Virus record (IMG/VR): IMGVR_UViG_2558860274_000003
Length of the DNA stretch: 15,475 nt
Strand: one strand, 5' to 3'
Source: a virus
Taxonomy: Duplodnaviria; Heunggongvirae; Uroviricota; Caudoviricetes
A program made the translations under genes and the position numbers. The notes below the pieces were generated by a model. The model ran no database searches. It worked only from the letters and a program-made list of their open reading frames with translations, and was not told where the DNA came from. The stretch's first letter is position 1. Each line of letters begins with the position of its first letter. Positions 3,016 through 7,549 of the stretch are shown here, one piece after another.

Positions 3016-3789
3016 ATGCTTCCTACATCGCAATTACGACCGACCGGGACATTCTGCTCCTATTCCGCTGAAACATCAGCAGGCATCAAAAGCGAAATCA
3101 CACCAATTCAGATAGAAGAAGCGCGGGCCAGTGGTCGTTTATATATCAAAGATTGTGATATTGAGTATCTGCCACAGTTACCAAACGAAATAACATCAGT
3201 TACAATCGAAAACTGCAACAACCTGACAACCCTTACAGGATTGCCGGTTAATACACAAAACCTCTCCGTCATTAACTGTGAAAAATTACAAATCACAGAC
3301 ATGCCATCAACCGTAAAAAATCTACATATTGAATTAACTGATTCGCCATTTATACATATTATACCTGAGGGTGTTGAGTGCCTGACAGTTTGCCACTGTC
3401 AGATATCGGGAGTACCAGAGAGCGTCCGTCATCTTGAGATAAGAGGTCACGCCACAGACAGCATAAAAAATGTTCCAAACGGGCTATCATCTCTCAGCAT
3501 CAGTAGTTATACCCCGGAGAATCAGGCAAGCATTGATAGCCTGATATCACCGTCACTGCAGATGCTATCTCTGACTGGATGTAGCAATATTATACTGCCG
3601 GAGAAACTTCCGGAGAGTGTGACATCTATAACCATTCATGCGGAACAGAAAGCCACGTGGAACATCGGTGTTGAAGGGATGCCTGATAGGCTGGATCTCG
3701 ATTGGATTTGCCCCTATATTTCCAGACATCTGTTATCACTTAACCCATTACAAGCCCGCTGCCGCAGATATTCCCGTGGCGAGCGATAA
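3016..3789 (+). pseudogene. Leucine-rich-repeat protein; native codons 1-229 (3016-3702), then 28 codons read into IS2
   Basis: Repeated about 20-22-aa units with an L..L.L..N/C.L.. pattern (LPNEITSVTIENCNNLTTLTGLPVNTQNLSVINCEKLQI...), typical of bacterial LRR domains. The IS2 terminus begins at 3703 inside the ORF, so the C-terminus and stop are IS-derived. Family assignment beyond LRR is not possible by eye. Confidence 0.6.
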
Positions 3790-4619
3790 CCCAGCGCACT
3801 ATGCGGATGCCATTCGTTATAATGCTCGAACGCCTCTGCAAGGTTCTTTGCTGCCGTTAACCCGTCTGGTTTGGGCATGATACTGATGTAGTCACGCTTT
3901 ATCGTTTTCACGAAGCTCTCTGCTATTCCGTTACTCTCCGGACTCCGCACCGCCGTGTTCTTCGGTTCAAGTCCCAACATCCGGGCGAACTGGCGTGTTT
4001 CATTAGCCCGGTAGCATGAACCATTATCCGTCAGCCACTCCACTGGAGACGACGGAAGATCGTTGCCGAAGCGGCGTTCCACCGCTCCTGGCATGACGTC
4101 CTGTACTGTTTCACTGTTGAAGCCGCCGGTAGTGACCGCCCAGTGCAGTGCCTCACGATCACAGCAGTCCAGCGCGAACGTGACACGCAGTCTCTCTCCG
4201 TTATCACAGCAGAACTCGAACCCGTCAGAGCACCATCGCTGATTGCTTTCTTTCACGGCCACTCTGCCTGTATGTGCCCGTTTCGATGGCGGTACAGCAG
4301 GTTTTCGCTCAAGCAACAGCGCATTCTGGCGCATGATCCGGTAAACACGTTTGGCATTGATCGCAGGCATACCATCAAGTTCTGCCTGTCTGCGAAGCAG
4401 CGCCCATACCCGACGATAACCATACGTGGGCAGCTCTCCGATAACATGGTGTATACGGAGAAGCACATCCGTATCATCAGTGTGACGACTGCGGCGGCCA
4501 TCCATCCAGTCATCGGTTCGTCTGAGAATGACGTGCAACTGCGCACGCGACACCCGGAGACAACGGCTGACTAAGCTTACTCCCCATCCCCGGGCAATAA
4601 GGGCGCGTGCGCTATCCAC
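3714..4619 (-). CDS. insD: IS2 transposase InsD (OrfB, 301 aa)
   Basis: 301-aa translation [34 protein letters not shown]... recognised as IS2 InsD, with DDE integrase-type catalytic region. Confidence 0.9.
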
Positions 4620-4942
4620 TTTTTTGCCCGTCCATATTCAACGGCTTCTTTGAGGAGTTCATTTTCCATCGTTTTCTTGCCGAGCAGGCGCTGGAGTTCT
4701 TTAATCTGCTTCATGGCGGCAGCAAGTTCAGAGGCAGGAACAACCTGTTCTCCGGCGGCGACAGCAGTAAGACTTCCTTCCTGGTATTGCTTACGCCAGA
4801 GAAATAACTGGCTGGCTGCTACACCATGTTGCCGGGCAACGAGGGAGACCGTCATCCCCGGTTCAAAGCTCTGCTGAACAATTGCGATCTTTTCCTGTGT
4901 GGTACGCCGTCTGCGTTTCTCCGGCCCTAAGACATCAATCAT
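4577..4942 (-). CDS. insC: IS2 InsC (OrfA, 121 aa)
   Basis: Start chosen at the internal Met ([18 protein letters not shown]...), which is preceded by GGAG and gives the canonical 121-aa product. It overlaps insD as expected for a -1 frameshift pair. Confidence 0.85.
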
Positions 4943-5053
4943 CTGTTCTCCAATGACTAGTCTAAAAACTAGTATTAAGACTATCACTTATTTAAGTGAT
5001 ATTGGTTGTCTGGAGATTCAGGGGGCCAGTCTAACTGCGAAGCGTTGGTTTCA

Positions 5054-6592
5054 TTATTCAGCTGGCAGTGCTATGCGCCACGGAAGCAGTTCGCTGACCC
5101 GGTTGACCGGCCAGTCTGCTATGACGCCAAGCACATGGCGAAGGTAGCTTTCTGGATCCACGTCATTCAGTTTGCACGTCCCGATCAGGCTGTACAGTAG
5201 CGCTCCCCGCTCACCACCATGATCAGAGCCGAAGAACAGGAAGTTTTTACGACCCAGACTGACCGCCCGCAGGGCATTTTCAGCGATGTTGTTGTCGATT
5301 TCCACCCAGCCATCGTTCGCATAGTACGTCAGTGCCGGCCACTGGTTAAGTGCGTACGCGAACGCCTTCGCCAACTCTGAGTGTCGCGACAGGGTCTTCA
5401 TCTTTTCACGCAACCAGCTTTCCAGGGATTTCAACAACGGTTTCGTTTTTCGCTGACGTTCAGCAAGCCGCTGCTCTGCCGGCATTCCCCTTATATCCGC
5501 CTCTATGGCGTACAACTGACCGATCTGCTCCAGGGCTTCTTCCGTCAGTGCTGACGGGATGCGGACGTGCACATCGTGGATCTTTCGGCGGGCATGAGCC
5601 CAGCAGGCAGCTTCCGTTATCCCACCATTGCGATACAGCTCGTTGAACCCGGCGTACGCATCCGCTTGCAGCACACCGCTGAAGCAGGCAAGATGAGTCT
5701 GCGGATGGATGCCTTTTCTGTCCGGGCTGTAAGCGAACCACACTGCAGGTGCCAACGCTGACCCTGCATTGCGGTCATCACGAACATACGCCCACAACCG
5801 CCCGGTCTTCGTCTTCTTATTACCCGGCAGCAGTACCTGGACCGGGGTATCATCGGCATGGAGTTTGCCGTCAGTCATGACATAGCCATGAAGCGCCTCT
5901 TCCAGCGGAGACAGCAGCCGGCAGCATGCATCCACCCAGCCCGACAGCAGTGAACGCCTCAGCTCCACACCTTGCCGGCCGTATATTTCTGACTGGCGAT
6001 ACAGCGGGGTGTGCTCTGCATACTTCGAGGTCAGCACGCGGGCCAGCAGCCCCGGTCCGGCGATACCCCGCTCGATGGGCCGCGAAGGTGCAGGTGCCTG
6101 CACGATGGCATCGCACTGAGTACAGGCATGTTTTTCCCGTACCGTCCGGATAACCCGGAAGGCGCTACGCATCAACTCCAGCTGTTCGGCGGTATCCTCG
6201 CCCAGATAGCTCAGTGAACCGCCGCAGTTCGGGCAGCACGGCGCCGCAGGCAACAGTCGCTTTTCGTCACGGGGTAGTGATTCAGGGAACGGCTTACGGG
6301 TGCGGGTCTGACGCAACGGACGCTGTACTGCCGGGTCATACACCCTACCAGTCAGCGTATCGCTCTCTTTCTGAAGCCGGTTCAGATCGGCTTCCATTTG
6401 TGCGATACGGCGGGAGACTTTTTCGGAACGACTGCCGAAGTTCATCCGGCGGAGTTTATCCAGCTGCGCCTGCAGATGGTCTATTTCGCGCTCCCGGTTG
6501 CTCAGCTTTTCCTGCAGGGCGTGGATCAGCGCTTCCTGTTCGGCCAGGCGCTGTTTCAGCAGGAAGATGTCGTCAGAAGAGATGTCGTTCAT
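5054..6592 (-). CDS. tnpC: IS66-family transposase TnpC (512 aa)
   Basis: 512-aa ORF with leucine-zipper/coiled-coil N-terminus ([19 protein letters not shown]...), CxxC...CxxC zinc-finger motifs and a DDE-type core, typical of IS66 Orf3. Confidence 0.88.
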
Positions 6593-6641
6593 AAGCCCGT
6601 ATTTTACCGGGCTTATTCTGTGACAACCAGGATAAAGAGAT

Positions 6642-6989
6642 TTACAGCATGGTCAGGGAGGTCAGCAGCCGCTTAGGCTGTCGCCAGTCGATACCTTCCA
6701 GCAGCATCGCCAGCTGCGCCTGCGTAAGGAACACTTTGCCATCACGGGCTGACGGCCAGGCGAAGCGCCCACGCTCCAGCCGTTTGGTCAGGAGGCACAG
6801 TCCGTCACCGGTGGACCACAGCAGTTTAACCTGACTGCCGCTGCGGCCCCGGAAAATGAAAACATGGCCGGACATGGGATCGTCTTTCAGCGCCGTTTGT
6901 ACTTTCGCAGCCAGGCCGTTGAAGCCATTTCTCATATCGGTGATACCGGCAACCAGCCAAATTTTGGTCCCGGAAGGTAACGGGATCAT
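6642..6989 (-). CDS. tnpB: IS66-family Orf2 (TnpB, 115 aa)
   Basis: 115-aa [33 protein letters not shown]..., the conserved IS66 Orf2. Its start overlaps the tnpA stop (ATGA). Confidence 0.85.
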
Positions 6990-7387
6990 CGCTTCAGTTC
7001 CTGTATCAGCAGAGTCAGGAGCTTTTCGCTGACATTGCCATTGAAGCGGAGCGTCCCGTGCCGGAACGTTACCTCACAGCTGATACTGAGGGTTTCCGGG
7101 TCCTCTGCGAGCGATTCTGGCTGTTCGGCAGCTGCATCGAGAGTCACAGGAAGTAGCTGGGGGCTCTCTGAAGAAGGTAATAGCAGCTTTCCCTCGCGCC
7201 ATTGTTGTCGCCATTTGAACAACAGATTGGCGTTAATGCCATTTTCAAGAGCAAGTTTTGAGATGGATATCCCGGGTTCACAGGAGGCAGCAACGAGCTG
7301 CTGTTTAAATTCGGGAGGATAATTAGGGCAGCCTTTTCGCCTGCCGGGAGTCACATTTTTCTGCATATCTGATACTTTGGTTCCCAC
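6986..7387 (-). CDS. tnpA: IS66-family Orf1 (TnpA, 133 aa)
   Basis: First ORF of the IS66 operon, about 70 bp inside the GTAAGCG terminus. Confidence 0.8.
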   Translation of the reverse strand: MGTKVSDMQKNVTPGRRKGCPNYPPEFKQQLVAASCEPGISISKLALENGINANLLFKWRQQWREGKLLLPSSESPQLLPVTLDAAAEQPESLAEDPETLSISCEVTFRHGTLRFNGNVSEKLLTLLIQELKR

Positions 7388-7441
7388 TACTTATTTGGTG
7401 GACACCACTTTGTCTAATTCGTCAGATTCTGACCAGACGGT

Positions 7442-7549
7442 TCAGGCTGTACGCTTACGTTCAACAGGAGGAACGCCCCATTTATCAAATGCCTGAACAG
7501 AGATACCGATGGAGGAGGCCATATCACTTTTATTCAATAAAAAGGCCAT
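7442..7549 (-). pseudogene. Small HTH regulator in the cII position, 3' end interrupted by the IS66 terminus
   Basis: Downstream of cro and nutR on the cro strand. Start placed at the Met preceded by the strong SD GGAGAGGAG (MAFLLNKSDMASSIGISVQAFDKWGVPP...), with a Cro/CII-like motif SSIGISVQAFDKWG. The last about 5 codons and the stop lie inside the IS66 end (7445-7458), so the native C-terminus is lost. Start and identity are uncertain. Confidence 0.35.

Follow-up and report, generated by a model that had tools for sequence, protein, structure and literature searches.

The IMG/VR record IMGVR_UViG_2558860274_000003 (15,475 nucleotides, analysed at full length and called the window here) carries, between positions 3703 and 7458, a complete copy of the insertion sequence (IS) IS2, 20 bp of DNA that belong to neither neighbouring element, and a copy of the IS66-family element ISEc8 that has lost its right end. 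This interval, which is flanked by the remains of a type III effector gene and of the small terminase gene terS, is probably a deletion scar in a lambdoid prophage that has decayed in several steps at the argU (DLP12) site of the Escherichia coli chromosome, and one of the deletions is probably anchored at IS2, since one boundary matches an IS2 tip to the exact base. The DNA missing at the IS block extends from codon 31 of terS to codon 229 of the effector gene, which corresponds to about 24.6 kb in a reference prophage, or about 22 kb when the reference strain's own ISEc8 is subtracted.

The IS2–ISEc8 interval and its boundaries

The boundaries of IS2 were fixed against 12 other copies, whose tips match those in the window, and the boundaries of ISEc8 against three full copies. 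IS2 has its right inverted repeat (IRR) tip, TGGATTTGCCCC, at 3703 and its left inverted repeat (IRL) tip, ...GGGGCCAGTCTA, at 5033, and both its length and its imperfect terminal inverted repeats are those of IS2, an IS3-family element. The overlapping genes orfB (3714–4619; HTH_21, rve, and rve_3 domains) and orfA (4577–4942; HTH_Tnp_1 domain) are intact, and an A6G motif for −1 frameshifting (AAAAAAG, minus strand) is present at 4620–4626. The element is 99.5% identical to the annotated copy of strain MS1657 (locus L019 of those fetched for comparison) and two other genomes contain four copies that match it at 100%, which indicates that this isoform is active and multicopy. OrfA is the common form, and OrfB has one leucine-to-proline change: the codon at 4090–4092 specifies Pro (DVMPGAVE) where the MS1657 copy has Leu, and identical copies of the isoform elsewhere carry proper 5-bp duplications. 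Mosaic structure within IS2 is uninformative as a trace of recombination between two copies, since identical copies of this isoform exist elsewhere.

The flanks of IS2, TCGAT (3698–3702) and ACTGC (5034–5038), do not form a 5-bp target duplication, which concerns the history of the insertion and not the identity of the element. Under one boundary rule, perfect 5-bp duplications are present at 8 of the 12 other full-length copies in the fetched loci (ATTAC in L019, CTTTT in L004, and six more) and absent from the remaining four. The missing duplication is real but not rare.

ISEc8 retains intact tnpC (5054–6592), tnpB (6642–6989), and tnpA (6986–7366), the full tnpA–tnpB–tnpC gene set, and its left tip, GTAAGCGTACAGCC, at 7458. 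It is 99.6% identical to the copy in L003 and 100% identical to that in L024, and its TnpC is the widespread ISEc8 TnpC. A complete ISEc8 is 2442 bp long and continues for 37 bp beyond the tnpC stop (cacatccccgtcaatacgg...gtacgcttac), whereas homology in the window ends exactly at that stop (5054), 37 bp before the right tip, and neither the full length nor the pair of inverted repeats (GTAAGCG...) is present. Among the ISEc8 matches listed (E. coli genomes, plasmids, and phages, best-covering first), all start at 5054 and none covers 80% of the query. Full copies used as controls carry 8-bp duplications (ATCAGCTC in L001, TGTCATTC in L003). The left flank in the window, GTTCAACA (7459–7466), occurs only once there; with the right end of the element gone, no duplication partner is possible, and the copy is presumably immobile after the loss of its right inverted repeat.

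These boundaries bear on an earlier note on this DNA, which was made from the letters alone. Its observation that IS2 lacks a target duplication stands, and control copies do show 5-bp duplications under the same rule. The note also described the interval as consisting of nothing but IS66-family and IS2 sequence plus a truncated leucine-rich repeat (LRR) gene, which overlooks the 20 bp at 5034–5053, and it proposed to fix the right end of the IS66 block by aligning 5034–5060 and to check for an 8-bp duplication of the left flank. Alignment to the termini places no such end there, the last 37 bp and the right inverted repeat being absent, and the left flank has no partner. The spacing of about 20 bp between IS2 and the tnpC stop was read correctly, but it is not an IS66 terminus, as ISEc8 is truncated.

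The 20-mer had no match in 5,426 complete E. coli genomes, in a search that did detect a control with a 20-nt match inside 30 nt (E = 0.5), nor in plasmids, phages, or IMG/VR. It is likewise absent, with up to four mismatches allowed, from the reference prophage and every fetched locus, and the best template for it within the window is a single 9-mer, which is the chance expectation. Among 185,579 species genomes, one holds an exact match, that of E. albertii NBRC 107761 (L007, 2906–2925), where the sequence is chromosomal and intergenic; of five metagenome matches, two are at the E. albertii-type locus and three in unrelated contexts. The number of matches corresponds to chance expectation, whereas the fact that the sole genome match falls in Escherichia does not. 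The E. albertii site lies 420 bp upstream of an omptin paralogue beside ymgF, in a region without a counterpart in complete E. coli genomes. An extended unit consisting of IS2 plus the 20 bp, with a surrogate TG...CA end, was considered and rejected: the flanks (TCGAT and TTATT) differ, and no other IS2 copy has such a flank.

To the left of IS2, the effector open reading frame (ORF) reads on into the element and stops at 3789. The stub is 99.2–99.9% identical in DNA to full-length genes in L003 and L004, and in intact relatives ...CTCGAT is followed by TTACAAAATG..., so the right flank of IS2 is not the remainder of the effector gene. The stub scores 497 bits against the NCBIfam EspK model (cut-off, 934), for which the full-length relative in L004 reaches 919 bits, and is a truncated pseudogene of the EspK/GogB family. 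To the right of ISEc8, positions 7459–7700 match annotated "terminase small subunit" genes at 99–100%, and the stub encodes MAFLLNKSDMASSIGISVQAFDKWGVPPVER (residues 1–31) followed by four IS-encoded residues, KRTA*. Both genes are dead. The effector gene and terS are unrelated, in agreement with the earlier statement that the truncated genes on either side are not halves of one gene. The gene cut at 7458 had been assigned to the cII position; it is instead terS codons 1–31, by DNA identity of 99–100%, and the real cII stub lies at 8003–8086. A reader without tools can take the terminase stub for cII.

Formation of the interval

Chimeric ORFs across the outer junctions are present in independent metagenome assemblies (European Nucleotide Archive samples ERZ27280851, ERZ922862, ERZ28651384, and ERZ28646286): two contigs carry effector'::IS2 and three carry terS'::ISEc8, with both outer junctions represented in sample ERZ27280851. 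The terS'::ISEc8 contigs (L015–L017) are 99.8–100% identical to the window, and L015 lacks an IS1203-like element that the window contains. As for the effector'::IS2 contigs, L014 is 100% identical to the window and L013 is 0.7% diverged and still has a methyltransferase segment. The outer junctions are thus inherited in a circulating lineage, given that they occur in independent contigs that include a diverged carrier, and they predate both the loss of the methyltransferase segment and the IS1203-like insertion, as L013 and L015 show the junctions without these changes. The outer junctions and the junction at 8003 are found in no complete E. coli genome, and look-ups with TnpC and with the IS2 OrfB isoform returned unrelated insertion sites only. 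The junction expected of an ancestor with a simple insertion is not in IMG/VR, and no recorded ORFs span the inner IS2–ISEc8 joint.

A plausible course of events would begin with insertion of ISEc8 into terS at codon 31. IS2 would then have entered the EspK/GogB-family effector gene, which lies beyond the tail-fibre genes in such prophages, and one or more deletions between the two elements would have removed the head, tail, and tail-fibre genes together with the 3' half of the effector gene. The copy of ISEc8 in terS of L024 was considered as the ancestral state and rejected, because it lies at codon ~85 and not at codon 31 and is hence an independent insertion.

Two routes could lead from IS2 to the deletion. 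One is homologous recombination between two IS2 copies in direct orientation, each of which once had its own duplication; the single IS2 left behind would have its left flank from one copy and its right flank from the other. Alternatively, a transposase-driven adjacent deletion may have occurred; for IS3-family elements, such deletions are stimulated by the IS-excision enhancer (IEE). Elements of this family move by a copy-out-paste-in process that does not itself delete the flanks, and IEE is found in more than 30% of E. coli assemblies (PMC9943667; bioRxiv 10.1101/2023.06.07.543989); a model has been proposed in which strand transfer is directed to a site other than the second IS end (bioRxiv 10.1101/2023.06.07.543989), and in vitro IEE both bridges and extends DNA ends (PMC9943667). 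The two routes are inseparable here and are given about equal weight. The 5053/5054 boundary, which is inside ISEc8 and 37 bp from its tip, would be an illegitimate join, resembling two other, IS-free joins of the same prophage.

Several points weigh against an IS2-anchored deletion. The 20 bp between the elements are explained by neither route and require either filler synthesis or an extra step that left them behind from DNA since lost. Should two separate deletions have occurred, the position of IS2 only 20 bp from the break in ISEc8 is a coincidence. The IS2–20 bp–ISEc8 joint has been seen in the window alone, and all related contigs break inside IS elements. In addition, no relative was found in an intermediate state, that is, with IS2 in the effector gene between both halves and a TCGAT duplication, or with a complete ISEc8 at the same site in terS, and we can therefore only infer the order of events and the mechanism. 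The comparison with related genomes proposed in the earlier note gave, in the prophage of strain 2013C-3264, the expected gene order, but no intermediate. The core of that note's view, IS-mediated deletion or recombination in place of simple insertion, holds in that the IS2 flanks are mismatched and the right end of ISEc8 is lost; the missing duplication itself is less special than it had seemed, as four of the 12 other IS2 copies also lack one.

An assembly artefact would account for the same structure if effector'|IS2, IS2|20 bp|truncated ISEc8, and ISEc8|terS' came from different IS copies and had been threaded together through collapsed repeats, in which case the missing duplication would be spurious and other DNA would separate the junctions in the actual genome. 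Every related contig recovered ends inside IS2 or ISEc8, both elements are multicopy (in the collection, 4,927 blocks list TnpC and 248 list the IS2 OrfB isoform), and the inner joint is absent from all other records searched. However, both outer flanks come from one prophage and one site, in the order and orientation left by a simple internal deletion, and the window has no other sign of misassembly, its IS1203-like insertion having a clean duplication; we regard a chimera as unlikely. A comparably small probability is given to a single end-joining event, in which a break at the IRL tip of the effector-gene IS2 was joined to a break in ISEc8 with 20 nt of filler synthesised in the course of microhomology-mediated end joining by an enzyme such as the IEE primase-polymerase. 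Such an event would account at once for the closeness of IS2 to the ISEc8 break, no complete E. coli genome contains a source for the 20-mer, and the bridging and extension of DNA ends by IEE in vitro are in keeping with it (PMC9943667). Against this, neither the window nor the reference prophage offers a 20-nt template, the best match being the 9-mer at chance level, the occurrence of the 20-mer in the E. albertii chromosome argues for inherited and not newly made sequence, and filler of 20 nt is not documented for IEE in the literature examined. More doubtful still is the specific proposal that the 20-mer was synthesised by an IEE-type primase-polymerase while the IS2-tip break was being joined to the break inside ISEc8; if true, insertion during an IS3-family-associated deletion, whether templated or untemplated, would have left a natural genomic footprint in the 20-mer.

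Illegitimate deletions that were independent of IS elements and ended at the IS2 tip by chance would have precedents in the two IS-free microhomology deletions of this prophage, but the join is at the terminal base of a complete IS2, for which the chance with random endpoints is about 1 in thousands, and this explanation is very improbable. Least probable are two simple nested insertions. The earlier note had held that matching duplications, once the boundaries were refined, would indicate such insertions; none was found, and the reading is refuted by the sequence, as neither 3702/5034 nor, with the 20 bp assigned to IS2, 3702/5054 (TCGAT versus TTATT) shows a 5-bp repeat, and the right end of ISEc8 is physically absent while its left flank is unique in the window. 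Inversion between two ISEc8 copies was rejected on logical grounds, because complete elements would remain. A deletion anchored at IS2 is the probable explanation of the interval.

The prophage and its separate deletions

The window corresponds to the argU/DLP12 prophage site, with ompT and appY on the left and the last 298 bp of intD at its right end; argU itself lies beyond the window. The intD/argU and ompT–appY flanks and a lambda-like gene order identify a lambdoid prophage at this site. The ompT, appY, and tail-fibre-assembly region is 99.2% identical to the same locus of strain CUVET18-1475, and no complete E. coli genome contains more than half of the window. Strain 2013C-3264 has a complete prophage at this site (the reference prophage, L018), against which gene order and sizes were judged; its order is intD-...-gam-...-N-cI-cro-cII-O-P-ren-nin-Q-lysis-ylcI-terS-terL-...-J-lom-tail fibre-effector-tfa remnants-ompT. 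The features of the window are listed in Table 1.

Table 1. Features of the prophage and its surroundings in the window
Feature	Position	Strand	Basis or remark
ompT	1–954		
appY	1204–1953		
Tail-fibre-assembly gene remnant	2490–2627	−	Left anchor of the prophage right end; matches pseudogenes annotated as tail fiber assembly in L002 and L003
EspK/GogB-family type III effector gene ("LRR gene"), 5' half (229/453 codons), cut by IS2	3016–3702	+	NCBIfam NF011913 EspK, profile positions 1–232 of 453, E 3.5e-149
IS2 (IS3 family), complete, 1331 bp	3703–5033	−	33-nt inverted repeat I1; Pfam HTH_Tnp_1, rve; comparison with other copies
20-bp orphan ACTGCGAAGCGTTGGTTTCA, neither IS2 nor ISEc8	5034–5053	.	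ISEc8 homology begins only at 5054
ISEc8 (IS66 family) without terminal 37 bp and right inverted repeat, 2405 of 2442 bp	5054–7458	−	Pfam; identity to other copies
terS (small terminase, Nu1-like), first 31 codons, cut by ISEc8 left end	7459–7549	−	99–100% DNA identity to annotated terS
cosN AGGTCGCCGCCC	7766–7777	−	Reverse complement of lambda GGGCGGCGACCT; kept upstream of the terS stub, between ylcI' and terS'
ylcI, first 6 codons	7986–8004	+	Ends at IS-free junction
cII, true remnant, first 28 codons	8003–8086	−	Fused head-to-head to ylcI'

Codon 28 of cII is joined to codon 6 of ylcI at 8003/8004, 545 bp to the right of the IS block, by an IS-free junction with 2 bp of microhomology (AA). 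Through this join the prophage lost the 3' end of cII, O, P, ren, nin, Q, and its lysis genes; the corresponding DNA measures about 14 kb in the reference prophage. The IS block had been said to replace the whole replication–lysis–morphogenesis arm; this applies to the morphogenesis genes, but the replication and lysis genes were lost separately at 8003/8004. A second IS-free join connects gam' to 'intD at 15178–15180 with GAA microhomology and is accompanied by the loss of about 4.4 kb, including bet, exo, xis, and most of int, so that the remnant cannot excise. The locus is a dead lambda-like prophage without replication, lysis, and morphogenesis genes and with a truncated integrase gene and EspK-family effector gene. 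The call of cosN relies on the lambda cohesive-end sequence, GGGCGGCGACCT. With cosN, this dead prophage retains a packaging signal that the terminase of a helper lambdoid phage might recognise.

Other features were observed away from the IS block. The window has one tail-fibre-assembly repeat of about 115 bp (2510–2624), whereas L013, L003, and L002 have two, which flank an S-adenosylmethionine (SAM)-methyltransferase gene; about 0.9 kb with this gene was probably lost by a repeat-mediated event. The IS1203/IS629-like element at 13196–14508 is flanked by a clean 3-bp duplication, GAC (13193–13195 and 14509–14511), and is a recent simple insertion, as it is absent from the otherwise 99.98% identical contig L015. 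Just after cI, at the rexAB position (9251–10557), a 185-aa protein and a 250-aa DUF1828 protein are encoded, and this pair matches the PADLOC candidate defence system PDC-M24 (A, E 5e-4; B, E 6e-10). The segment 12309–12798 lacks a counterpart in L001 and L006, whose early regions are collinear with that of the window in other respects. This segment contains a 149-aa ORF (12338–12787) between ral and a DUF2528 gene, without a PADLOC match.

Gene loss in this prophage occurred in at least four separate steps, only one of which is IS-anchored. The main value of the analysis is a correct annotation of the locus, together with one further E. coli case in which an IS3-family element marks a prophage deletion.

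Comparison with known systems

The phenomenon is known: the interval represents routine IS-driven prophage decay and no new kind of element. Deletions associated with IS629, an IS3-family element, in prophages of enterohaemorrhagic E. coli (EHEC) O157, and adjacent deletions promoted by IEE, have been described (Ooka et al., 2009; Kusumoto et al., 2011; both as cited in PMC9943667). As in those deletions, an IS3-family element lies at a deletion boundary in a lambdoid prophage and is kept without a duplication, and the size of the deletion is within the reported range (a few nucleotides to more than 40 kb). Unlike them, the element in the window is IS2, and the far boundary is inside ISEc8, with the 20-bp orphan between.

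ISEc8 has entered lambdoid and Shiga toxin (Stx) prophages repeatedly, with independent insertions in terS (L024, codon ~85), a tail-fibre gene (L003), N (L001), and Stx phages. Those copies are complete and have 8-bp duplications, whereas the copy in the window, 99.6–100% identical in sequence, is without its last 37 bp and a duplication partner.

A further close counterpart is the cryptic prophage DLP12 of E. coli K-12, with the gene order intD ... ylcI-nohD ... tfa remnants-appY-ompT at the argU site. The two prophages share the chromosomal site and the outer genes (intD, ompT, appY, and the tail-fibre-assembly remnant); both keep the ylcI/small-terminase/cos neighbourhood, and both are without morphogenesis genes. 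They differ in the immunity and early region, in which the window has cI/cro as in icd-site prophages of avian pathogenic E. coli (APEC) strains, and the prophage in the window is further distinguished from DLP12 by its EspK-family effector remnant, by other deletion endpoints, and by other IS content.

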